Source: a virus
Taxonomy: Duplodnaviria > Caudoviricetes
Direction: 5' to 3' (one strand)
Virus record (IMG/VR): IMGVR_UViG_3300037504_001140
Coordinates: 1 to 27,128 of that record
DNA length: 27,128 bases
Part shown: positions 356 to 24,934 of the stretch, piece by piece
How the letters are laid out: every line of letters begins with the position of its first letter
How positions within the stretch are numbered: the stretch's first letter is position 1
Program-made: the position numbers and the translations under genes
The notes under the pieces: generated by a model
The model's database searches: none
Told to the model about the DNA's origin: nothing
What the model saw: the letters and a program-made list of their open reading frames with translations, nothing else

Positions 356-679
356 ATGAAGAAATTGCTTGCTATCGTTATTATGCTTTCTCTTCCCGCG
401 ATGGCTTTGTCGGCGGACTTGACCCTGTCCTGGGACGCAATGGAAAACGCGAGCGGCTATACCGTCGAGCGCTCCATCGACTCCGGGGCGACCTGGGAGA
501 AGGTAGCGGACGTCACCGCCAATTCCGTTGCTCTCTCCGCGCAGCCCGACTCTGGCCTGGCGCTGTATCGAGTGGGCGCGTACAACGGCCAGGGAGAAGT
601 GACCAGAACTTACTCCGGTGCCTGGTATAACGGGGATTGGCTTTTGCCGGGGATGACGAGCGGGGTGGGGGTGGAGTGA
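356..679 (+). CDS. Secreted fibronectin type III-like protein
   Basis: AAGGAG RBS, signal peptide MKKLLAIVIMLSLPAMALSA, FN3 pattern LTLSWD...SGYTVERS...YRVGAYNGQGE. Confidence 0.8.
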   Translation: MKKLLAIVIMLSLPAMALSADLTLSWDAMENASGYTVERSIDSGATWEKVADVTANSVALSAQPDSGLALYRVGAYNGQGEVTRTYSGAWYNGDWLLPGMTSGVGVE

Positions 680-12377: not shown

Positions 12378-15300
12378 ATGGCCAGTAACGACCTGTACGA
12401 CTTCTTTCTGCAGGCGGATGCGGAGAGAAGGGGTGTCGTACCCGAAAACGAAGACTTGGGGACGTCTCCCGAGGCGCACCAGTTTTTTCTCGAGGCGGAG
12501 AGGGAGCGCAGCGGCGGCGACTTCACGCGCGGGATCAAAAAGGGCGTCAACCAGTTGCAGGGCTCTCTTTACGGTGCCGCCGGCCTTGCCGCGTCTGCCG
12601 CCGACAAGGTGGGCCTCGACAATGTTGGCCTTGCCGGAATGCTGAAGGAGAAAACCGGCTTTAATGCGGCAGAGGCCGTGCGCGACTGGGGGCTCCGCAA
12701 TTACGAGCGCAACATGGAGGAGGCCGCCCGGTACCCGACCAAAACACTCAAGGACATCGGCGAGGCGGAGGGTTTTCTGGATACCGCGGGGACAGCCGTT
12801 GATTGGGTGCAGGGTGCCGCCGGACAGATTGCACCTTCCATGGTAGAGGCGGCTGTTGGTGCGATTGTCGGCTCCCTCATGGCCCCGGGCCCGGGAACGG
12901 CCGCCGGCGGGGTAGCTTCGCGGACGATCCTGCGTAAAGCCATAGACAAAATGACGGACCGGATTGTTCAAGACCAGGTTAAGAAGGGCTTGATCAAGGA
13001 GGGCGCGGAGGAGGCGGCCAAGAAGGAGGTCCGCGATCTCGCCACGAGGCAGGCCCTCAAAAAGCTCGGTGGCCGCGTCGGCATGGGGGCTGCCGTTTTC
13101 CCGATGGAGGCGGGCGGCAATTATGCGGAGGTTCTGTCCAGGCACGGCGTGGATGCGCCGGCAACGGCCGCGCTTACCGGAGCGCTCGCCACCTCTCTCG
13201 AGTTTCTTGGCGGCAACGTTAAGTTGGTGGATCAGTTCGTGGACGCTGTCGCAAAGGGCGTTCCGAGCAGCATCAAGCGCTCCGCCGTGGAGCTCTTGAA
13301 GAACATCCCGGCCGAAGCAATGCAGGAGGCGGGCCAGGAATCCCTGTCCATTCTGAACACGGTGGTAAACACCGACGAGAAATTTCTGACACCGGAGCAC
13401 GTGGAGCAGATCGTTGAATCGGCCGCCGTTGGTGGTGTTGGTGGCGGAATCGGTGCGGGGGCGCAGATAACAGGGCGCGTGCGGGGACGAAAGAAAGGCG
13501 AGGCGCCAGTCGATTTCAGTCAAATTGAGGACCAGTTGCTTGCCGACGAGACAGAAGGGGAGGCGATCGTCACGCCGGAAAAAAAGACCCCCACCGCCCC
13601 CGGGGCACGGCCCGGTCAGGCGCAGATGGACCTGTTCCGGCGGTGGGACGCGGAAAGAAAGCAAACCAGACAAGCGGAGGTGACACCGGATGCCGAAAGG
13701 TTACGAAAAGATGAGAGACGAATTCAAGGAGCAGGGCTTGAGCGACCGGGAGGCGAAGAAAAAGGCCGCCCGGATATGGAACAGCCAGCACAAGAAGCGC
13801 CCGGTGACAAGGAAGCGGGGAAAGTAGAGCCCGTTAGAGCAGAGGGTGAAGGGGCCGCTGTCCGTCGCGAGCGGAAGCCCATAAAAACCGGGGCCAGGGT
13901 CAAGACCTATTTGCCCGACAATACCGAGGTTGAGGCAGAGTACGCCGCTGTCGAGGCGGGAGATCTTGCCGCCTCCCACGATGAGGACTTGCGCATCAAC
14001 CCGACATTTCCTGCCGACCTTCAGCCACGAGATCGAGGCCGGGACGCCATGCGGCTGCAGGTGCAGCAGATGGCGCAGAAGCTGAACCCCGAGCGCCTGG
14101 GGGAATCCGCGAGCGTTACCGGGGGCGCCCCGATCATTGGCGAGGATATGGTTGTGGAGTCGGGCAACGGGCGTGTTATCGCCATTAGAAAGGCGTACCG
14201 GGGAGACAGGGGGAAAGAGTACAGGCAGTGGCTTGAGAAGAACGCGGAGCGCTTCGGCCTGGATGCCGCAGACATATCGGGCATGAGCAGTCCCGTTCTT
14301 GTAAGGGTGCGGAAAACCGACGTGGACCGGGCGGACTTTGCACGGCGGGCCAACCAGGGAGACGTTGCCTCCATGGGGCCTGCGGAAACCGCGAAAAGTG
14401 ACGCTGAGCGCATCCGCGACGAGGATATGACCATTTTCGCCCCGTCAGAGGAGGGCGATATCACCGCGGCATCGAACCGCCCCTTCATGGGGCGCTTTCT
14501 TGAGCGGATCGGACTGAACGAAGCGGCAGGCTTTGTCACCAGGGACGGACGCTACACCAAGCAGCTGGTGGACAGGGTCAAGGCGGCAATCTTTCACCGG
14601 GCATATGAGAACGACGACCTTGTCACCTTGATGGCCGAGGAGGCCGACCCGGGCGTCAAGAACGTGCTGAACGCCCTTACGGTGGCCGCGCCGCGCTTTG
14701 TCAAAGCCAAGGCGGCAGACCCTGAGGCGTATGCCAAGGCGCAGGTGCCCGGGCATATTGCGGGTGCCGTGAGGTTGATCAAGGAGGCGAAGGATGCGGG
14801 TTTTCAGATGGCGGACTACCTGCGGCAGACCCGGCTGTTTGGCGACGAGATTCCGCAAGCGACCAAGGAAATTGCCCTTTTCATCGACCAGAACAAGCGC
14901 AGCGCAAAGCGCATGGGCGAAATGTTCCGGGCGATGGCCGACGAATTACAGAAAAAAACTTCCGATCAGGGCTACAACGCCTTGCCGGGCATGAAAATCG
15001 ATGATATAAATATAGAGAAGATTGTCGAAAATTCTATCCAAAAGATGAAGGATTTCTACAATGAGCAACCTCAGGGCCAAATCCGACTTTTCGGAGCTGA
15101 GCGAGATGTTCAAGCGGGCCGTGGAGAAGGCGAATCAGCTGGACGTGGACGAGCCGCTTCTGGTGTGGCCGGAGCTCCCGCCCAGTCTGAAGAACCCGAA
15201 GCGGAAGCCGGAAGAGAAAAGCCAGCCGGAGAAGTAAGGGAGCCTGATTATGTCGAAGGTACTTTTCTTGGAGAACCATCGCGGGCGGACAGAAGGGCCT

Positions 15301-18300
15301 ACACCCAGGCATCGCTCCCGTTCGGAGAAGGGGCAAAAGGCAGAGGTGAGGCAGATCCCTCTATACCCCCTCCCCCAAGAAGAGTGGTTATGCGTCCCGT
15401 CGAAGGGGCCGGATCTGGAAAACACGTTCTACATCGAATAGACGACGCAGTATCCCTTCTTTCTTTTCTCCAGAAAGATCCGCAGGAAAGCGCCTACACT
15501 GTCGCCACGGACAAGGATGGCAACGTCCTTGAAATCCATCGCTATTCAAGAGGCACGAAATCCTCCGCCAAAATCTTCGTAAGCGAAATCGCGGGCCCCG
15601 TCTTTGACCTGAAAGACGCAGCCAATGTTTACTTTGTCCACAATCACCCGAGTGGCGGGCTGAATCCGAGCCAAGCCGACATGGCGATTGACGGATACCT
15701 TCGCGCAGCCCTTGACCTTGCCGATATCGAGGTTTCCTCTGCCGTTATGGGCAAAGGCAGGTTTCGGGAGTTTACCGCGACAAATGAAAACGCCGGCACG
15801 CGGTCGATCAGAGAGTCGGTTCGAAAACAAATTCCCGCGAAGGAGAGGGCTTTTGCGGAAAGGCTTGCAGAGCCGGGCGATCCTATCCCAAACGGGGATG
15901 TGGCCGCACAATACATTGCCGACAGGCATGGGAAGCGGGCAGACGGCTTTCTTTACATGGACACGCAAAACAGGCCCGTCGGCTTCTTGCCGTTTCCGAA
16001 GGGCAAGGGCGCCAACGAAATCGCAAAAGAAGTGATCCGAACGGCAAACAAGCTGAATGGATCCAACATTATTGTCGCATTCCCTTCCACGCAAAAGCTG
16101 CGGGACAGGTCTGAGTTTCTTGGCGACCTGAACGGGCTTCTCCACGAAAACCAAATCCTTGACATCATCGCCGGGGGCAAATCGCTGTCCAATAGCGGAC
16201 AGATGAAAAATATGTTCCCGCATGGAAAATACCCGCTGAACGCAGCATTGAGCTTGAAGCTGCTGGGGCCGGTGTATCAGCGCAAATCCGACCCCTTCTA
16301 CTCCGAACTGACCCGAACCGTCGAGGCAATGGACTTCAAGACCATGCCGCCGAAAGACTTGCTCAGCCGCATCAAGAAATCCCCTGGCGTGAAACAGGAG
16401 GAAATTGATTGGTCTGGAATTGAGTCTTGGCTGAATGAGCAAGAGGGCAAGGTCAGCAAGGATGATGTGCTGGAGTACTTGGCGGCGAACAACATCCAGA
16501 TCGAGGAGGTGGAAAAGAAGGATGCGGTTAGGCCAGATCCAGCATACCTTGATCTGTTTAAAACAGAAGACCAAGATGGCACGCCTGTTTTAAGGGTCCA
16601 GTGGTCTGACTTGGATCAAGTTTATGCCGACAGTTATGATGATGGTGAAACCTTTGATTTAATGGTTGATGGCGATTTTCAGGCCACTGCGCAAAGCGAA
16701 GATGAAGCAAGGCGATTTGTGTTACAAGAGGTGGGGGAAAATTATAGCCACCTGTTAAGTCGCCAAGAAATTGCCGACGCCAAATTCTCCCAATACCAAC
16801 TCCCCGGCGGCGAAAATTACCGAGAAGTGTTGCTGACGATGCCAGTAAACCGGCGCATGCCCTTTGAGGAATTCCTCTCTGCATATCGTAAGCGATTTCC
16901 GAGCGCCAAGGTTACAGACGAAGAAATTCGTGGGTTTTATAACGATGGGGTAGAAATACCTACGCCCAATCGACGCATCTCAAGCAAGACAGACGCTTTT
17001 TCGTCCCCCCACTGGGACGAACCCAACGTTCTCGCCCATGTCCGATTCAACGAGCGTACCGGGCCAAACGGTGAGCGGATTCTGTTCTTGGAGGAAATTC
17101 AGAGTGATTGGCATCAGGAGGGGCGGAAGAGGGGGTATAAGAGCAAAGAGCCAATGTATTCCAAAGAGGAAACAATGGCTTACCAAGAAGACATTTTCGC
17201 TCGTTTTGACCGGGGTGAAATTACGAGAGAGCAACGCAATGCTGAACTGGATCGACTGAGCGACATGAGAGCTGATAGGGTTGGCGTCCCCGACGCCCCC
17301 TTCAAAACCACATGGCCGCAACTCGTCATGAAGCGCATGGTGCGCTATGCCGCTGAAAACGGGTTTGATATGGTGGCTTGGACACCGGGGAGCGTGCAGG
17401 CTGAGCGGTATGATTTGAGCAAACAGGTTGGCAAAATTGTATATACCAAAGATGGCACATTAAGCGCGTATAAAGACGCTGGCGGCCCCTTGAATAGAGA
17501 AAACAGGGTTATCCAGGAGTCCAACATATCAATTGAAAAACTGTCTGATTATATTGGCAAGGAAGGCGCTGAAAAACTCCTAAACAACCCGACCCGGAAA
17601 ATCGGAGAAAACACTTTTGTACTTGAGGGCGACGACCTCAAGGTCGGTGGCGAAGGCATGAAAGCCTTCTATGACAAGATGTTGCCCGCTGCCGTCAACA
17701 AATTCTTCAACAAGGGCAAGTGGGGCAAGGCGAAGGTTGGGACGACAATTATCCCCAAGACGCAATTATCTCCCGGAGAGAAAATTGATGCTTCAAGCCC
17801 ATATGCAATTCCCGCCCACGCCCTCCCCATCACCCCTCAAATGCGCGAAAAAGCCTTGTCCGAGGGAATGCCGCTGTTTCAGCAGGGAGGTGTGGGCGAA
17901 CCTGAAGTAGCCCTGCCGCCCTTATCTGAAAAAGACAAGCACCGCTTATCCCGCATTGTTCGGCAAAAGGACAAAATCAAAACCCCTACCGATAATGACC
18001 TTGCAAATTATCTGTCAGACGCTATTTATGATAGTAGACTGAGAAGCAATTTTATCAACAAAATCCTTAAAAAAGCAGGAGTGACAGAAGATGCCCTGTA
18101 TATGGCTCAAAAGCGGAATCAAGCTGAATCTGAAAAAATCCGCGATGCAAGACAAGCGTTTCGTAAAGCGTTTACGCTCTGGGGAATTAGAGAGGAAGAT
18201 AATGTCCTTATTTCCGGCACTCCTGTCACCAAAGAAGAAAAGGCTGTTCAGAAAGTAGCAAAAACCTTTGGCGCAGACCTTTATTTTTTTAAGGGCAAAG

Positions 18301-21300
18301 GCACGTTTCTTGATAAAGTAAACGGTGTTACCCTACCTTGGGCACCCAAAAACATCTATATCAGCAAGCAGTCAGACCATCCCTTTATCCAAGTTGCCGG
18401 TCACGAATTAATCCATACCATTCGGCGAACAAACCCAGAACTGTATAAATTCCTCGATGAATCCCTGAGAAATGATGTGGTTGGTTTTGGGGAATACCTG
18501 GACAGCATTAATAAGCGCTACCGGGAAGATGAAAAGCTGTCGCCAAAGCAAGGACTTGAAGAACTGTACGCTGATTTTGTTGGCGATCAAATGATGAAGC
18601 CTGAGTTTTGGGACAATCTCGCTAACCAGAACCCAACCTTAACACAGCGGTTAGCCCAAGCCCTACATGAAATTTTTAAGCGCATTAAACGGGCGCTGAA
18701 GCGGCATGTGCCTGAATCTGAGCAATATTTTAAGGATGTGCAAAGAGCGCAGGATGTGGTGGTGAAGGTGTTGAATGAGGCGTCGGGGGTGCAGGGCAGT
18801 GATGTAAACCGATTCGCCCAACCCACCACCTTCAGCCTCAAGCAAGCCGTCAAGAAAATCACTGATAACCCCAATTTCAGAAAGTGGTTTGGCGATAGCA
18901 AGGTGGTGGACGAGAACGGGGAACCATTGGTGGTGTATCATGGGGCAAAAAAAGATTTTAGCAAATTCAAACAAAAAGGATTATCAAAAGGCTTTTTCTT
19001 TAGTGAGTCCCCGAATGAAGCATCGCAGTTGCACTCCAGGCTTTTCGACAGAGAAGCCCCCTACTCAGATGGCGCGAACGTCTTTCCTGTTTATTTGTCC
19101 ATAGAAAACCCAATGATGCTTGAGGGGATTGGCTGGGACCCGATGTTTGAAAATAGGGCCATAGAAAATGCAAAACAGCATGGGCATGATGGGTTAATCT
19201 TAAAGCGTGGAGATGTGACGGACTACGTCGCCTTTGAGCCCACCCAAATCAAATCCATCTTCAACACCGGCGCGTTTGACGCGGCGAACCCGGATATTAT
19301 GTACCAGCGCAGGCAACTCCTCGAAGAAAAGAAACTCCCCAGCGTCATCGAGGAAAACTTCGGCACCAAAGAGACCAGCGTCGGCGAGGCGGTCAAGGGC
19401 GCCCTCAACATCATGCGCAGCAAAGAGGGCCGGCGCGAACTCTCCGATGAAATGGTCGCAAACGTCTTCGATCAGCTGCACCCGATTAAAAAGCACGGGG
19501 GCGAAAAGGCTTATGTCCTGCACCGCCTTGAAACGGGAAGTCAGGCCGTGTTTGCAATGCTCCTGGAGCATGGAAAACTCGTCAAGGACAAGTCGGGCCT
19601 TCTCACCATGAAGACCCGGAACGAGGGCTTCCTCCCATTCCTGCAAAGCCTTGGCGATGACGGGCACAAATTTCTCTACTGGGTGGCGGCGAAACGGGCG
19701 GCAAGCCTCGAGGCCCAGGGCAGGGAGCGGCGCCTGGACGCGGCGACCAGAAAAAAGATTTTCGATTGGGCGGGCGGGGAGAACAACCCGAAGTGGATGG
19801 CGGCATCGAAAAAACTGCACGAGTTTAACAAGAGCGTGCTTGATGTGGCCGAGGCTTCGGGCCTGATTGACCCAGTGGCCAGAAAGACGTGGGAGCAGTT
19901 CTTTTACGTGCCGTTCTACCGGGTGTTCGAGGACGAGCAGGCCCGCAGCGAGTTCCTGGCCGGACCGCATCAGAGCAAAAAGTTTATCTCCTCGCAGATT
20001 CGGCAGCTGAAGGGCTCCGAAAAAAAACCCGGGGACCCGCTCGAAAACCTGCTCCGCAACTGGATGCACTTGATTTCCGAGAGCATGCGAAACGAGGCCC
20101 GGGCAGAGGCGGTCCGGTTCTCCGAGGAGCACGGCACGGGTATGATCGAGCGCCTTGACAAGGGCGACATTCTGCGGTTCCGCAGCTCCAGGGACAAAAA
20201 GGTCGTGTTCGTGACCAAAAAATCCGAGGACAACGTGCTGTCCTTCATGGAAGGCGGGCAGACGGTGTATTTCAAGGTGAACGACCCCGCCTTTTTTCAG
20301 GCGCTCGCAAATATCAACACGCCGCATTTCGACAACATCATGGTGCGGATGATGGGCAAGACGAAGCGGTGGCTGACCTATGGCGCAACCTTCGGCCCAG
20401 CCTTCCGGGTTGCCAACATGCTGCGGGACACCCTGCACACATCCTTGATGGAGGAAAGTTTCAAGCCCTTCATGGACACGGCCATCGGGTTCTGGAAGGC
20501 ATACCGGGAGGACCCGGACTTCGTCGCCTTCATGGCGGCTGGCGGCGGCTTCGGATCAAGCCACGTCGAGGCGGACAACCCCCAGGTGGCGGCAAAGTTC
20601 GTGCGCAAGATCGTGAAGAACGAGGGCAAGGATGCGCTCGACCGGATACTCGACACCCCGGCCAAGATGCTCAACTGGTGGGAGCGAGTGGGGGCTGCGT
20701 CCGAGAACGCAGCCCGCGTGAGGCTCTACCAGAAACTGCTGGGGGAGGGTCAGGATCACATGGAGGCGGCCTTTCGAGCCCGGGATCTGCTCGATTTCAC
20801 CATGCGGGGGCGGAGTCGGACCGTGCAGTTTCTGATACAGACCGTGCCGTTTCTGAACGCCCGCATGCAGGGCCTTTACAAACTGGGCAAGGCGGCATCG
20901 GGAAAAGAGACCCGAAGAAACTTTTTCCTCCGCGGCGCGCTCCTCGCCGTTGCCTCGATGGCTCTATGGGCGTGGAACAAAGACAAGGAGGAGTACAAAT
21001 CGCTCGAGGATTGGGATAAGTGGACATACTATCATTTTTGGGTGGGCGACAAGCACTTTCGCATCCCCAAGCCGTTCGAGGTCGGCGCCATCTTCTCATC
21101 CTTCCCGGAAACGCTCCTCGATGCCTTGAACGGCAACACCGAGACAAAAAAGATCGCCGAATTTATCGGGCACACCGCGACCGAGACGTTTTCAATCGGG
21201 CTGCCGCAAATATTTCGCCCCATGGTCGAGCAGTGGGCAAACCGCTCTGCCTTCACGGACCGGCCTATCGTGGGCCAGCGCCTCGAGGGGTTGCCTGCCT

Positions 21301-21869
21301 CGGAGCAGCACGATCCCTGGACATCCGAAACCCTGCAGGCGATCGGCGACATCTTCAACCTCTCTCCGAAGCGTGCAGAGCACCTGGTAAACGGATATTT
21401 TGCAACGCTTGGCCGCTTCGTTCTTGCCGGGCCGGACATCCTGCTTCATCACGCCTTGGATTTTCCCGAGGACCCGACCAAGCGGATAGAGGACTACCCG
21501 GCCATCGGACGGTTTGTCAAAGAGAAAACCCCGCAGCGTTATACCCGCTACCAAACCTGGTTTTACGACACCATGCAGGAAATGGACAAAACGGTGCGGG
21601 CGATCAATAAGCTTCGGTTCAGGGGTGAGACTGGGAGGGCCGTGGAAATGGCCAGGGACAAGCGCGACCTGCTGCTGGCGAGATCCGCCTTCAGCCAGGT
21701 CCGAGGCACGCTGAGCCGCGTCAACAGAGAGATGCGACGGGTGCTCTACGACAAGGAAATGGGCGCTGAGGAAAAAGCCGAGCGTATTAACGAGCTCTAT
21801 CAACTCCGAAATGATCTCGTGAAGCGAGCGTATGAGGCATATCGCAAACAATCGGACGGGGGGCGGTGA
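12378..21869 (+). CDS. Large polyvalent ejection protein (ddrB-ParB, JAB/RadC x2, EEIQSD domain, zincin peptidase, ART-PolyVal, LPD38-like)
   Basis: Hydrophobic Gly/Ala N-terminus; LQPRDR...GAPII...VESGNGR (~14020-14170); HNHPSG (15639); LEEIQSDWHQ (~17090); HELIH (18402); FRKWFGDSKVVDENGEPLVVYHG...GHDG...QIKS (18876-19257); FRIPKPFEVG (~21060). Confidence 0.9.
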   Translation: MASNDLYDFFLQADAERRGVVPENEDLGTSPEAHQFFLEAERERSGGDFTRGIKKGVNQLQGSLYGAAGLAASAADKVGLDNVGLAGMLKEKTGFNAAEAVRDWGLRNYERNMEEAARYPTKTLKDIGEAEGFLDTAGTAVDWVQGAAGQIAPSMVEAAVGAIVGSLMAPGPGTAAGGVASRTILRKAIDKMTDRIVQDQVKKGLIKEGAEEAAKKEVRDLATRQALKKLGGRVGMGAAVFPMEAGGNYAEVLSRHGVDAPATAALTGALATSLEFLGGNVKLVDQFVDAVAKGVPSSIKRSAVELLKNIPAEAMQEAGQESLSILNTVVNTDEKFLTPEHVEQIVESAAVGGVGGGIGAGAQITGRVRGRKKGEAPVDFSQIEDQLLADETEGEAIVTPEKKTPTAPGARPGQAQMDLFRRWDAERKQTRQAEVTPDAERLRKDERRIQGAGLERPGGEEKGRPDMEQPAQEAPGDKEAGKVEPVRAEGEGAAVRRERKPIKTGARVKTYLPDNTEVEAEYAAVEAGDLAASHDEDLRINPTFPADLQPRDRGRDAMRLQVQQMAQKLNPERLGESASVTGGAPIIGEDMVVESGNGRVIAIRKAYRGDRGKEYRQWLEKNAERFGLDAADISGMSSPVLVRVRKTDVDRADFARRANQGDVASMGPAETAKSDAERIRDEDMTIFAPSEEGDITAASNRPFMGRFLERIGLNEAAGFVTRDGRYTKQLVDRVKAAIFHRAYENDDLVTLMAEEADPGVKNVLNALTVAAPRFVKAKAADPEAYAKAQVPGHIAGAVRLIKEAKDAGFQMADYLRQTRLFGDEIPQATKEIALFIDQNKRSAKRMGEMFRAMADELQKKTSDQGYNALPGMKIDDINIEKIVENSIQKMKDFYNEQPQGQIRLFGAERDVQAGRGEGESAGRGRAASGVAGAPAQSEEPEAEAGREKPAGEVREPDYVEGTFLGEPSRADRRAYTQASLPFGEGAKGRGEADPSIPPPPRRVVMRPVEGAGSGKHVLHRIDDAVSLLSFLQKDPQESAYTVATDKDGNVLEIHRYSRGTKSSAKIFVSEIAGPVFDLKDAANVYFVHNHPSGGLNPSQADMAIDGYLRAALDLADIEVSSAVMGKGRFREFTATNENAGTRSIRESVRKQIPAKERAFAERLAEPGDPIPNGDVAAQYIADRHGKRADGFLYMDTQNRPVGFLPFPKGKGANEIAKEVIRTANKLNGSNIIVAFPSTQKLRDRSEFLGDLNGLLHENQILDIIAGGKSLSNSGQMKNMFPHGKYPLNAALSLKLLGPVYQRKSDPFYSELTRTVEAMDFKTMPPKDLLSRIKKSPGVKQEEIDWSGIESWLNEQEGKVSKDDVLEYLAANNIQIEEVEKKDAVRPDPAYLDLFKTEDQDGTPVLRVQWSDLDQVYADSYDDGETFDLMVDGDFQATAQSEDEARRFVLQEVGENYSHLLSRQEIADAKFSQYQLPGGENYREVLLTMPVNRRMPFEEFLSAYRKRFPSAKVTDEEIRGFYNDGVEIPTPNRRISSKTDAFSSPHWDEPNVLAHVRFNERTGPNGERILFLEEIQSDWHQEGRKRGYKSKEPMYSKEETMAYQEDIFARFDRGEITREQRNAELDRLSDMRADRVGVPDAPFKTTWPQLVMKRMVRYAAENGFDMVAWTPGSVQAERYDLSKQVGKIVYTKDGTLSAYKDAGGPLNRENRVIQESNISIEKLSDYIGKEGAEKLLNNPTRKIGENTFVLEGDDLKVGGEGMKAFYDKMLPAAVNKFFNKGKWGKAKVGTTIIPKTQLSPGEKIDASSPYAIPAHALPITPQMREKALSEGMPLFQQGGVGEPEVALPPLSEKDKHRLSRIVRQKDKIKTPTDNDLANYLSDAIYDSRLRSNFINKILKKAGVTEDALYMAQKRNQAESEKIRDARQAFRKAFTLWGIREEDNVLISGTPVTKEEKAVQKVAKTFGADLYFFKGKGTFLDKVNGVTLPWAPKNIYISKQSDHPFIQVAGHELIHTIRRTNPELYKFLDESLRNDVVGFGEYLDSINKRYREDEKLSPKQGLEELYADFVGDQMMKPEFWDNLANQNPTLTQRLAQALHEIFKRIKRALKRHVPESEQYFKDVQRAQDVVVKVLNEASGVQGSDVNRFAQPTTFSLKQAVKKITDNPNFRKWFGDSKVVDENGEPLVVYHGAKKDFSKFKQKGLSKGFFFSESPNEASQLHSRLFDREAPYSDGANVFPVYLSIENPMMLEGIGWDPMFENRAIENAKQHGHDGLILKRGDVTDYVAFEPTQIKSIFNTGAFDAANPDIMYQRRQLLEEKKLPSVIEENFGTKETSVGEAVKGALNIMRSKEGRRELSDEMVANVFDQLHPIKKHGGEKAYVLHRLETGSQAVFAMLLEHGKLVKDKSGLLTMKTRNEGFLPFLQSLGDDGHKFLYWVAAKRAASLEAQGRERRLDAATRKKIFDWAGGENNPKWMAASKKLHEFNKSVLDVAEASGLIDPVARKTWEQFFYVPFYRVFEDEQARSEFLAGPHQSKKFISSQIRQLKGSEKKPGDPLENLLRNWMHLISESMRNEARAEAVRFSEEHGTGMIERLDKGDILRFRSSRDKKVVFVTKKSEDNVLSFMEGGQTVYFKVNDPAFFQALANINTPHFDNIMVRMMGKTKRWLTYGATFGPAFRVANMLRDTLHTSLMEESFKPFMDTAIGFWKAYREDPDFVAFMAAGGGFGSSHVEADNPQVAAKFVRKIVKNEGKDALDRILDTPAKMLNWWERVGAASENAARVRLYQKLLGEGQDHMEAAFRARDLLDFTMRGRSRTVQFLIQTVPFLNARMQGLYKLGKAASGKETRRNFFLRGALLAVASMALWAWNKDKEEYKSLEDWDKWTYYHFWVGDKHFRIPKPFEVGAIFSSFPETLLDALNGNTETKKIAEFIGHTATETFSIGLPQIFRPMVEQWANRSAFTDRPIVGQRLEGLPASEQHDPWTSETLQAIGDIFNLSPKRAEHLVNGYFATLGRFVLAGPDILLHHALDFPEDPTKRIEDYPAIGRFVKEKTPQRYTRYQTWFYDTMQEMDKTVRAINKLRFRGETGRAVEMARDKRDLLLARSAFSQVRGTLSRVNREMRRVLYDKEMGAEEKAERINELYQLRNDLVKRAYEAYRKQSDGGR

Positions 21870-22308: not shown

Positions 22309-22344
22309 TACCAAAACGGTATTTTTAAAAGAAAGGAGACCAAG

Positions 22345-22881
22345 ATGCGAAGACTTCTTTATTTGCTTGCAACCGCCCTGGTTTTTGTTGCCGTCGCACC
22401 GACGGCGTGGGGGGTCTGAGGCGGCCCCCGCCTGACCGTGGATGTCAGGCCAGAGGGGAGCGGCAGAATTGACATGGTGCAGCGCACGTGGCGCGGCGGC
22501 ACGGAGGACGCCGTCAACCCGGCCGATTTTCCATATTCATGCCAGTGTTACAGCATCTCCGACACCGTTGAGGCAACCGCGGCACCAACAGAGGGGTGGG
22601 AATTTGATCGATGGGAATTGGCTCCTTCGGACGGAACAAACTGGCGAACGCGCACCGATAGCGGCGAATTTGAGCCCGAAGCCAACCCCACCCGGTTCAG
22701 ACTGCGAAAAGAGCGGACGTTGACCGCCATATTCGAAAAGGCGAGCGCTCCTCCGCCCCCGATCGGGCCAGATGAGCCGGAGGACCCTTTCGTGCCAGAC
22801 CCCGTGCCCCCCGACGACTGCGACCGCGAAATGGAGGCGCTTGGCAGAAAACTGATGGAGTTGCTTCAACTGACCCGATAA
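22345..22881 (+). CDS. Putative secreted selenoprotein (Sec25) with InlB B-repeat-like domain, 178 aa
   Basis: AAAGGAG RBS, ATG at 22345, signal peptide MRRLLYLLATALVFVAVAPTAWG, then V-TGA(22417-22419)-GGPRLTVDVRPEGSG, in frame with track ORF 22438-22881; SECIS-like hairpin follows. Confidence 0.75.
22426..22458 (+). promoter_or_regulatory. Candidate bacterial SECIS element
   Basis: Perfect stem GCCTGAC (22430-36) / GTCAGGC (22444-50) with loop CGTGGAT (G at loop position 2); 17 nt between UGA and loop; lower CCCC/GGGG stem with a CAGA bulge. Confidence 0.75.
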
Positions 22882-22896: not shown

Positions 22897-23985
22897 ATGG
22901 AAAAGCTTACATCCGAGGACATCCGACGGCGCCACGACGAGGAGGTGAAGGAGCTGCACCGACAGCTGCTGGAAAAGGACCAGGTGCTCGAATCGTACAA
23001 GAAAGACCGGGGGCAGCTTGATGTTTATTTGCGGAAAGTGCTGAAGGAGGTGGCGCAGCCCATACAACCCCTTAAATCGGAACTGAGCCGGATCAAGCAG
23101 AAGGCGTCCCGGGTTGACAGCGAGATCATCCCCGTAAAACACATTACGGACAGCCACATGGGGGCGCAGCAAAGGCCGGACGAGATCGAGGGGTTTAATG
23201 AGTTCAGCCCCGAAATTTGCGACAACAGAAACCTGGCCTTCACCAGCGCCTTTTTGGCGTGGATCAACCTGCACCGGGAGCTCTACAAAATCCGGCAGGC
23301 ATGCGTCATCTTGACCGGCGACCTGATCAGCGGCGACATCCACGACGAACTCCGCGTCACCAACGCCTTCCCCTCGCCCGTCCAGGTTCACCGGGCGGCC
23401 CTCATCCACTCCCGGCAAGTCGCGCTGATCGCGCCTTTTTTTGAAAGCGTCACGGTGCACTTCATCGTCGAGGACAACCATGCCCGGCTTACGAAAAAAC
23501 CCCAAGCCAAGGAGGCGGGATACAATACGCTCAATTACCTTGTTGGATCCCTGATGGAGGCGTACCTCGAAAAGCACCAGAACGTGATTTTCCATCTTTA
23601 CCCGATGCTTGAGAAAGTGATCCAGGTGGGGGCCAGGAACTATCTGATCCGACATGGCCACAATGTGCGGGGCTGGATGGGGATTCCCTGGTACGGGCTT
23701 GAGCGCTCTTCGGGTCGGGAGGCGGCGATCCGGCAAAACATTATCATGCAGGATGCCCGACAAGCCAAGCGCATTGGCTATCACAAAATCATCCAGGGCC
23801 ATTTTCACACCCCATTCGACACCCCCCTCTACTCCTGCGGCGGAAGCGTGAGCGGAACGGATGCATACGACCACAAGGAGGGGCGGCACTCCGAGCCCAG
23901 TCAATCCGCATGGATGATTCACCCGAAATATGGAGAGTTCAACCGGGTAAATTTTCAACTCAAACATTTTGACAAAGGAGTGTAG
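22897..23985 (+). CDS. Calcineurin-like metallophosphoesterase with N-terminal coiled coil
   Basis: AAGGAGG RBS; motifs DSH, GD(LISGDIH), DNH (variant of GNH), HGH and GHFH. Confidence 0.85.
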   Translation: MEKLTSEDIRRRHDEEVKELHRQLLEKDQVLESYKKDRGQLDVYLRKVLKEVAQPIQPLKSELSRIKQKASRVDSEIIPVKHITDSHMGAQQRPDEIEGFNEFSPEICDNRNLAFTSAFLAWINLHRELYKIRQACVILTGDLISGDIHDELRVTNAFPSPVQVHRAALIHSRQVALIAPFFESVTVHFIVEDNHARLTKKPQAKEAGYNTLNYLVGSLMEAYLEKHQNVIFHLYPMLEKVIQVGARNYLIRHGHNVRGWMGIPWYGLERSSGREAAIRQNIIMQDARQAKRIGYHKIIQGHFHTPFDTPLYSCGGSVSGTDAYDHKEGRHSEPSQSAWMIHPKYGEFNRVNFQLKHFDKGV

Positions 23986-23990
23986 CCATC

Positions 23991-24425
23991 ATGCACTGCC
24001 CTCAATGCGGCCATGAGCGCACGGTCAAGCGGAACGGAAAGAAGGGGAACAAGCAACTCTGGATGTGCGTGGACTGCCCGGCAAAGGACCCGGGGAGAAG
24101 CACGTTTTTTGAGACGGAGTTGCATCGGGAGGAGGAGGGAGAGGGAAGGGCGCCCGCGGCGAGCGGACGCTTCTCCGAGAGCGATCTCAGAGAAAAGCAC
24201 GACATGATGTTTCGCCTCAAGAAGTTTCTGCAGGCGCTGCCGCGAGGTGAATTTATCGAGGAGGTGGAGCTTTTGAAAGAGTTGTGCATGTTTCGCAAGC
24301 CGGGATACAAGCAAGCGGTCGAGCACCCGGACATCAAGCCGCACCGCGGGAAGGCAGACGGCACGATCTATTATGGGCATCCGGACTCGATCCGGACGCT
24401 CAAGCAAGAGGGGGTGCTGATGTGA
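23991..24425 (+). CDS. Zinc-ribbon protein
   Basis: AAGGAG RBS; CPQC...VKRNGKKGNKQLWMCVDC ribbon followed by an unrelated helical domain. Confidence 0.75.
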   Translation: MHCPQCGHERTVKRNGKKGNKQLWMCVDCPAKDPGRSTFFETELHREEEGEGRAPAASGRFSESDLREKHDMMFRLKKFLQALPRGEFIEEVELLKELCMFRKPGYKQAVEHPDIKPHRGKADGTIYYGHPDSIRTLKQEGVLM

Positions 24426-24934
24426 ATACGTCCGCCTTCCGTAAGCAGGTTCAGCACTTCCGGCCGAGTGAGTTCCCCGAAAGCGTGGAGTGGGGCGACC
24501 CGGTATTGTTTGGTCGCCTTGACGCCTTCCGGGGCGCCCTCGGCTGCAGGATTTTTCCGTCGCCCGCACGGGGAGGTCTGGCCCGCTTCGAATGGGCGGA
24601 CAGGTTTAGCTGGCACTATTGCGATCGGGAGGGTGAAATTCGATCCAGGGCCGTGGATGTATTCTGCGAGTGCTCTGCCATCCACGCCTACACCCAGGCC
24701 CTTGCCTCGCAGCTGTGGGGAGGTGTCGGGGTCTATTTCGATACCCGGTACAACCAGAAGCCATGGATCATGTTTCATCTCGACACCCGGCAGCCGGGCG
24801 ATAGGCACGCAAAACAGACGGCGCTGGTCTGGTTCCGCGACCGAACGGGGCAATACCATTATCCGCAATACAACCGGCGCATGGAGGCGACACTGCTTTC
24901 CCTGCTGCTGGAGGCCACCCACCAAAGAAAATAA
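24422..24934 (+). CDS. Peptidase M15-family endolysin
   Basis: GTGA overlap start. HFRPSEF...LDAFRGALG...SWHY...AVDVF...GGVGVY...FHLDTR gives the H, D, H zinc ligands of M15. Confidence 0.85.
   Translation: MNTSAFRKQVQHFRPSEFPESVEWGDPVLFGRLDAFRGALGCRIFPSPARGGLARFEWADRFSWHYCDREGEIRSRAVDVFCECSAIHAYTQALASQLWGGVGVYFDTRYNQKPWIMFHLDTRQPGDRHAKQTALVWFRDRTGQYHYPQYNRRMEATLLSLLLEATHQRK

Follow-up and report, generated by a model that had tools for sequence, protein, structure and literature searches.

Introduction

The prototype of bacterial genes carrying a SECIS element within the open reading frame is E. coli fdhF. In such genes SelB binds a hairpin just past the UGA and delivers Sec-tRNA. Fig. 2 of PMC13188914 describes the bacterial SECIS by a loop of 3-9, a stem of 4-16, a G among the first two loop bases, a spacing of 16-37 and an energy of -7.5 or lower, and in hydrogenases the loop G distinguishes Sec forms (100%) from Cys forms (about 26%), according to the available part of PMC13582414. 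Among viruses, the poxvirus glutathione peroxidases of molluscum contagiosum and fowlpox are virus-encoded selenoproteins made on host machinery (available part of PMC8310308), as the gene described here would be, but they differ from it in their eukaryotic SECIS and hosts, and they are thioredoxin-type enzymes unrelated to it in sequence or fold. In ocean data, selenoprotein families contain no or very few viral sequences (PMC9402790, the part available). Our literature search, which most subscription papers lay outside, found no report of a phage selenoprotein or of the present protein family.

Here we describe a phage gene that is interrupted by an in-frame TGA and probably encodes a selenoprotein of a type that is uncatalogued and non-redox. 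The window, meaning the whole stretch of DNA that was analysed, is 27,128 nucleotides long and makes up positions 1 to 27,128 of the virus record IMGVR_UViG_3300037504_001140.

Results

The virus record is a linear, partial phage contig that is about 43% complete, and its DNA is carried by tidal-flat metagenomes. Its genes include an SU10-type adaptor, tail genes, an internal virion protein 28% identical to its counterpart in Burkholderia phage Bcep22 and related phages, and a polyvalent protein of 3163 residues. Upstream of the TGA gene (22345..22881) are the genes for this polyvalent protein and for a small membrane protein; downstream is a phosphoesterase-like gene. Neither selB nor a tRNA was found on the contig at its 43% completeness, a promoter scan of the stretch gave 0 sites, and no RNA runs carrying it were listed.

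Several neighbours were noted in passing. The polyvalent gene (12378-21869, plus strand) encodes ddrB-ParB, RadC, ART-PolyVal and LPD38 domains; its mid-part is lower in GC, with variant contigs and joints in the runs, and a 28,702-base contig of run X2 (record 13, depth 34.5) has 375 bases in common with it at 15068-15442, with 11 differences, indicating a related phage in that second run. The phosphoesterase-like gene with its zinc-finger partner (22897-24425, plus strand) was found again in unrelated viral contigs (L001-L012), the partner lying before or after, and an open frame of about 170 codons without a family match (24392-24934, plus strand) overlaps the end of the zinc-finger gene. 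At 356-679 (plus strand) lies a second small exported protein, a leader followed by a fibronectin-III-like domain, whose PHROG match, to a Hoc-like protein, is weak (E 5e-5); its Atlas look-alikes are unnamed clusters at 0.90-0.93.

The TGA gene occupies 22345..22881 on the plus strand and comprises 178 codons plus TAA when TGA is translated as U, with codon usage supporting this frame upstream as well as downstream of the TGA. Its ribosome-binding site, AAAGGAG (22332..22338, plus strand), lies 6 nt upstream of ATG 22345 and gives an anti-Shine-Dalgarno duplex of -7.1 kcal/mol, the strongest of three candidate starts. Residues 1-23 (22345..22413) form a predicted signal peptide with a basic start and a hydrophobic core, whose 11-residue Kyte-Doolittle value of 2.86 is equalled by 3 of 2256 six-frame windows; it ends A-W-G, the cleavage site being judged by eye. 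The TGA itself (22417..22419, plus strand), a likely selenocysteine codon, is codon 25. It would encode the second residue of the predicted mature protein, directly after Val, and 153 sense codons separate it from the TAA ending at 22881. No second lesion was seen on translation. These elements, from the ribosome-binding site through the leader and Val to the TGA and the 153 codons behind it, had been listed in the preliminary description, and each was found in place.

The TGA gene might instead have encoded a bacterial lipoprotein with a B-repeat. A lipobox before Cys marks bacterial lipoproteins, and by eye we rejected this possibility, as codon 25 is preceded by W-G-V, unlike the lipoprotein-like starts among the protein matches.

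The TGA was compared across the contigs of sequencing runs, and contigs of two runs show TGA and no other letter. Run X1 (depth 44), which may be the source of the record, holds the whole stretch in one piece, TGA included, and a run X2 contig over 22140-22462 (depth 4.2), spanning the TGA and the upper hairpin described below, has 0 other letters. Both are tidal-flat runs of 2020 that may belong to one campaign, and contigs drop rare variants. The same phage occurs in runs X1, X2, X3 and X5; of the 59 differences, 40 were listed, and the TGA gene contains none of these 40. Sequencing or assembly error at the TGA was rejected because the codon stands in the contigs of two runs.

Four codons past the TGA begins a divergent InlB B-repeat domain (residues 29-132; 22429..22740, plus strand), which places the TGA precisely at the border of leader and domain. 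The B-repeat-like domain with a CQC motif and a Pro-rich tail, proposed earlier from the letters, was borne out: Pfam PF18998 (Flg_new_2) scores 24.2 bits against a cut-off of 23.6, the profile alignment starts at residue 29, and the domain contains C66-Q-C68, with Cys68 encoded at 22546..22548. A Pro/acidic linker and a predicted C-terminal helix (residues 158-177) make up the remainder (22741..22878, plus strand), which includes Cys158, a fourth chalcogen residue. The structure model, built from a 27-row alignment, has a mean pLDDT of 80.6, places strands at residues 30-35 and 40-47 with pLDDT 85-94, and puts the helix after the Pro-rich linker.

Structure searches with the model returned five viral repeat proteins at E < 0.001, and viral predicted structures named 'bacterial repeat domain' match at E 1e-4 to 5e-4; pilin stalk domains show a weak likeness to the B-repeat model (best Z 7.0, rmsd 3.1, 94 aligned). 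Foldseek against the PDB gave none at E 0.001, and searching the PDB by sequence gave nothing meaningful. The phage protein differs from PF18998 repeats in being a single copy, in its two insertions, in a Cys before the conserved Tyr that 0 of 1220 other repeats have, and in the UGA before its first strand.

Two in-frame starts lie downstream of the TGA. The preliminary description had named GTG 22438, which does lie inside the hairpin loop, and had missed ATG 22474 (22474..22476, M44), the start used in the database gene call P0002 (135 aa). A 25-repeat profile made without the query gave 60.4 bits from codon 26, 56.5 from V32 (GTG 22438) and 52.2 from M44, the repeats having been picked for covering the query, which favours a higher score from codon 26. 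Judging by the model, starting at either position would truncate the fold and drop the leader. Because the first strands are placed upstream of both alternative starts, an intact product would need readthrough.

Protein searches of 1.84 billion representatives gave 285 matches at E 0.001, and among the 150 listed nearly all were tandem repeats of large surface proteins. The closest among the matches listed was MFP4533528.1 (P0087), a 'PKD domain-containing protein' from a Desulfobacterales MAG, with a single matching stretch of 43% over 84 columns of B-repeat. This protein differs from the phage product in its length of 786 aa and its rhodanese and PKD domains; it has a C-terminal G-G-C-F-I. 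Its annotated start falls mid-domain, without leader or first strands. A start inside a repeat was seen in 12 of 149 listed matches, 7 of them with Met, and is thus uncommon, not rare. The only near-length match was the phage protein itself, and other protein searches gave P0087 and generic repeats; an Atlas search with P0087 residues 1-75 gave leads under 0.9 only.

The two proteins have Cys68 in common (Cys12 of P0087, the sole Cys in its first 75 residues). In a profile alignment a Cys before the conserved Tyr occurred in 0/1220 repeats counted, the repeat of P0087 itself evidently beginning too late for counting; a rougher BLAST count aligned a Cys to position 68 in 5/306 pieces and to position 66 in 28/281. 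It had been suggested that Sec might pair with a Cys of CQC, and of the two the evidence favours Cys68, aligned in P0087 and seen in none of the 1220 other repeats, as the putative partner of Sec25. The partner of the corresponding Cys in P0087 may lie in its unannotated start, as codon 25 does in the phage gene. P0087 is in its own right a candidate mis-annotated host selenoprotein.

To learn whether homologues have Cys or TGA at the codon-25 column, viral, metagenome, genome, phage and plasmid DNA was searched and gave no homologous DNA, and the P0087 annotation omits the region. Viral contigs searched with the phage protein and with P0087 held no orthologue; a two-row alignment found one locus there, a generic repeat in a tail-like protein, and two DNA patterns found 35 and 58 loci, none homologous. 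Metagenome and genome contigs gave 2 and 3 generic repeat loci and no orthologue, phages and plasmids gave no match, and a Bacteroidota sample gave 0/301 genomes, which has no bearing on Desulfobacterota. Using giant-protein ends as a neighbour route gave no loci, and the TGA gene is absent from 12/12 loci with the neighbouring phosphoesterase. None of these scans found homologous DNA that could show a Cys/TGA column or hairpin covariation, and the case depends on a single allele plus one relative seen at the protein level.

Behind the TGA lies a SECIS-like element (22421..22464, plus strand) with an upper stem at 22430-22436/22444-22450, a loop at 22437-22443 and a weaker lower stem. The perfect 7-bp hairpin at +11 from the TGA, with a G among its first two loop bases, is present as claimed earlier: the upper stem begins 11 nt past the TGA, and its 7-nt loop contains GTG 22438. 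Folding gave -25.7 kcal/mol for the whole element, which is not unusual (z of -1.57 over 64 nt and -0.09 over 91 nt), and -10.3 kcal/mol for the upper hairpin, which alone stands out (z -2.91).

Measured against the bacterial SelB/SECIS genes of Fig. 2 in PMC13188914, the phage gene has an in-frame UGA, an upper stem of 7 bp, a loop of 7 nt with G at position 2, a spacing of 17 nt and an energy under -7.5, so that all the values fall within the published ranges. Its loop, C-GU-G-G-AU, also fits the finer pattern N1-G[GU]-N-N2 given in the available part of that paper, and the C and the second-last G can pair. The available part of PMC13326102 reports a canonical element in 87.4% of BSepDB entries, and a SECIS fit is therefore expected if the gene is real. 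The differences from these bacterial genes are its location on a phage, its exported B-repeat protein, and a Sec outside any CxxU/UxxC motif. Rfam gave two chance-level matches only. As a separate observation, an alternative short stem (22410-22429) may enclose the UGA in the centroid structure with the upper hairpin intact, and it could tune readthrough.

The general SECIS model is loose, being passed by 226 of the 1500 in-frame codons sampled from 7686, 103/695 window TGAs and 1321/3000 synonymous recodings, and fitting it is by itself weak evidence for Sec. A strict form, defined once the hairpin had been seen (stem at least 7, spacing 16-22, loop N?G[GU]), was passed by 6/1500 in-frame codons, 3/695 window TGAs and 45/3000 synonymous recodings. 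Only TGA 22417 among those three precedes a long open frame, of 153 codons versus 34 and 15. Recodings folding as stably numbered 319 of 3000, and a perfect stem at such spacing occurred at 8/3866 sampled positions and at 1/354 plus-strand TGAs, namely TGA 22417 itself.

Discussion

We propose, with a probability of roughly three in four, that the phage acquired this gene from a Sec-using host and makes from it an exported selenoprotein in which Sec25 likely forms a bond with Cys68. The general SECIS model, cited when a selenoprotein was first suggested for this locus, is weak evidence alone given the 15% or so of ordinary codons that pass it (226/1500); the reading has gained from the position of the TGA at the domain boundary, from the N-truncated Desulfobacterales relative with Cys68, and from the published loop pattern. 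The predicted fold, non-redox and of adhesin type, counts against it.

An unlikely competitor is a recent nonsense mutation that broke an accessory gene, in which case the hairpin would be accidental and in part dictated by the encoded peptide L-T-V-D-V-R. Phages commonly carry broken accessory genes, and the present gene is dispensable in the sense that the 12 phosphoesterase loci are without it. We have a single allele, with no relatives found in the DNA searches, and the recodings that pass the loose (1321) and strict (45) models illustrate how far the peptide itself can supply a hairpin. Against such an accident, the strict hairpin arises at a rate of only 0.4 to 1.5%, and the TGA would have had to land exactly at the leader/domain junction. 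Moreover, the closest relative at the protein level is also cut at its start and has the same rare Cys, and the TGA stands in two runs, one at depth 44, in a gene with no second lesion.

That the gene in truth yields a cytoplasmic protein of 135 residues from ATG 22474 (or GTG 22438), the upstream part being a separate 24-residue peptide, is very improbable: M44 is used in the database call and a purine run ahead of it gives a -6.5 kcal/mol duplex, but that run ends 13 nt upstream and is base-paired as part of the lower stem, the alternative GTG is located in the hairpin loop, and the leader and the first one or two strands would be lost. UGA leakiness is known in bacteria and a stable 3' hairpin follows the codon, yet we give similarly scant credence to UGA being read as Trp, Cys or Gly, whether through leakiness that the hairpin promotes or under a reassigned code, as spacing and loop match the SelB type and TGA is an ordinary stop in 8/21 hand-picked window genes (none with the strict hairpin). 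Codes 4 and 25 were rejected on the same grounds, since with TGA ending these 8 genes, and a 3163-codon frame holding no TGA at all, the code is standard; long frames are open under table 11.

On the selenoprotein reading, the hairpin downstream of codon 25 would be bound by SelB of the host, which would bring about selenocysteine insertion at this UGA and thereby an exported protein of 178 residues. Cleavage of the leader after A-W-G would expose V-U-G-G-P as a flexible arm preceding the first strand. This arm may fold back, and a Sec25-Cys68 selenium-sulfur bond could then serve as a structural staple or as a redox-active surface site. With less confidence, we suggest that the head domain was acquired from a surface protein of Desulfobacterales type, and that the phage makes it as a small exported accessory protein that may act on the envelope of its host, in receptor masking for example. 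If selenium were lacking, ribosomes would terminate at codon 25, which would make the product dependent on a Sec-using host. The one relative and the habitat suggest a Desulfobacterota host; Desulfobacterales rank with the bacteria richest in selenoproteins (Table 2 of PMC13326102), which fits the tidal flat.

No described selenoprotein family was seen to resemble this one. There is no B-repeat entry among the 119 families in Table 1 of PMC13188914, the term 'InlB' has 0 occurrences in the available parts of the catalogue papers PMC13188914 and PMC13326102, and NCBIfam gave no match to E 0.1. A fuller scenario, which we put forward tentatively and at somewhat less than even odds, is that there exists an uncatalogued family of surface selenoproteins, with an N-terminal Sec bonded to a family-specific Cys of an adhesin-type domain, and that a phage infecting sulfate-reducing Desulfobacterales has captured the head domain of such a protein. 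The Sec-Cys staple would survive in sulfide-rich, reducing sediment, and the exported product would be non-enzymatic and gated by host selenium.

If the selenoprotein reading is true, this would be a bacterial virus using host selenocysteine decoding, which we did not find reported in the literature. The protein would also represent a new type of selenoprotein, adhesin-like and non-redox in its fold, that gene callers have cut short in phage and host, and the recoding signal would limit the host range of the phage to Sec users.
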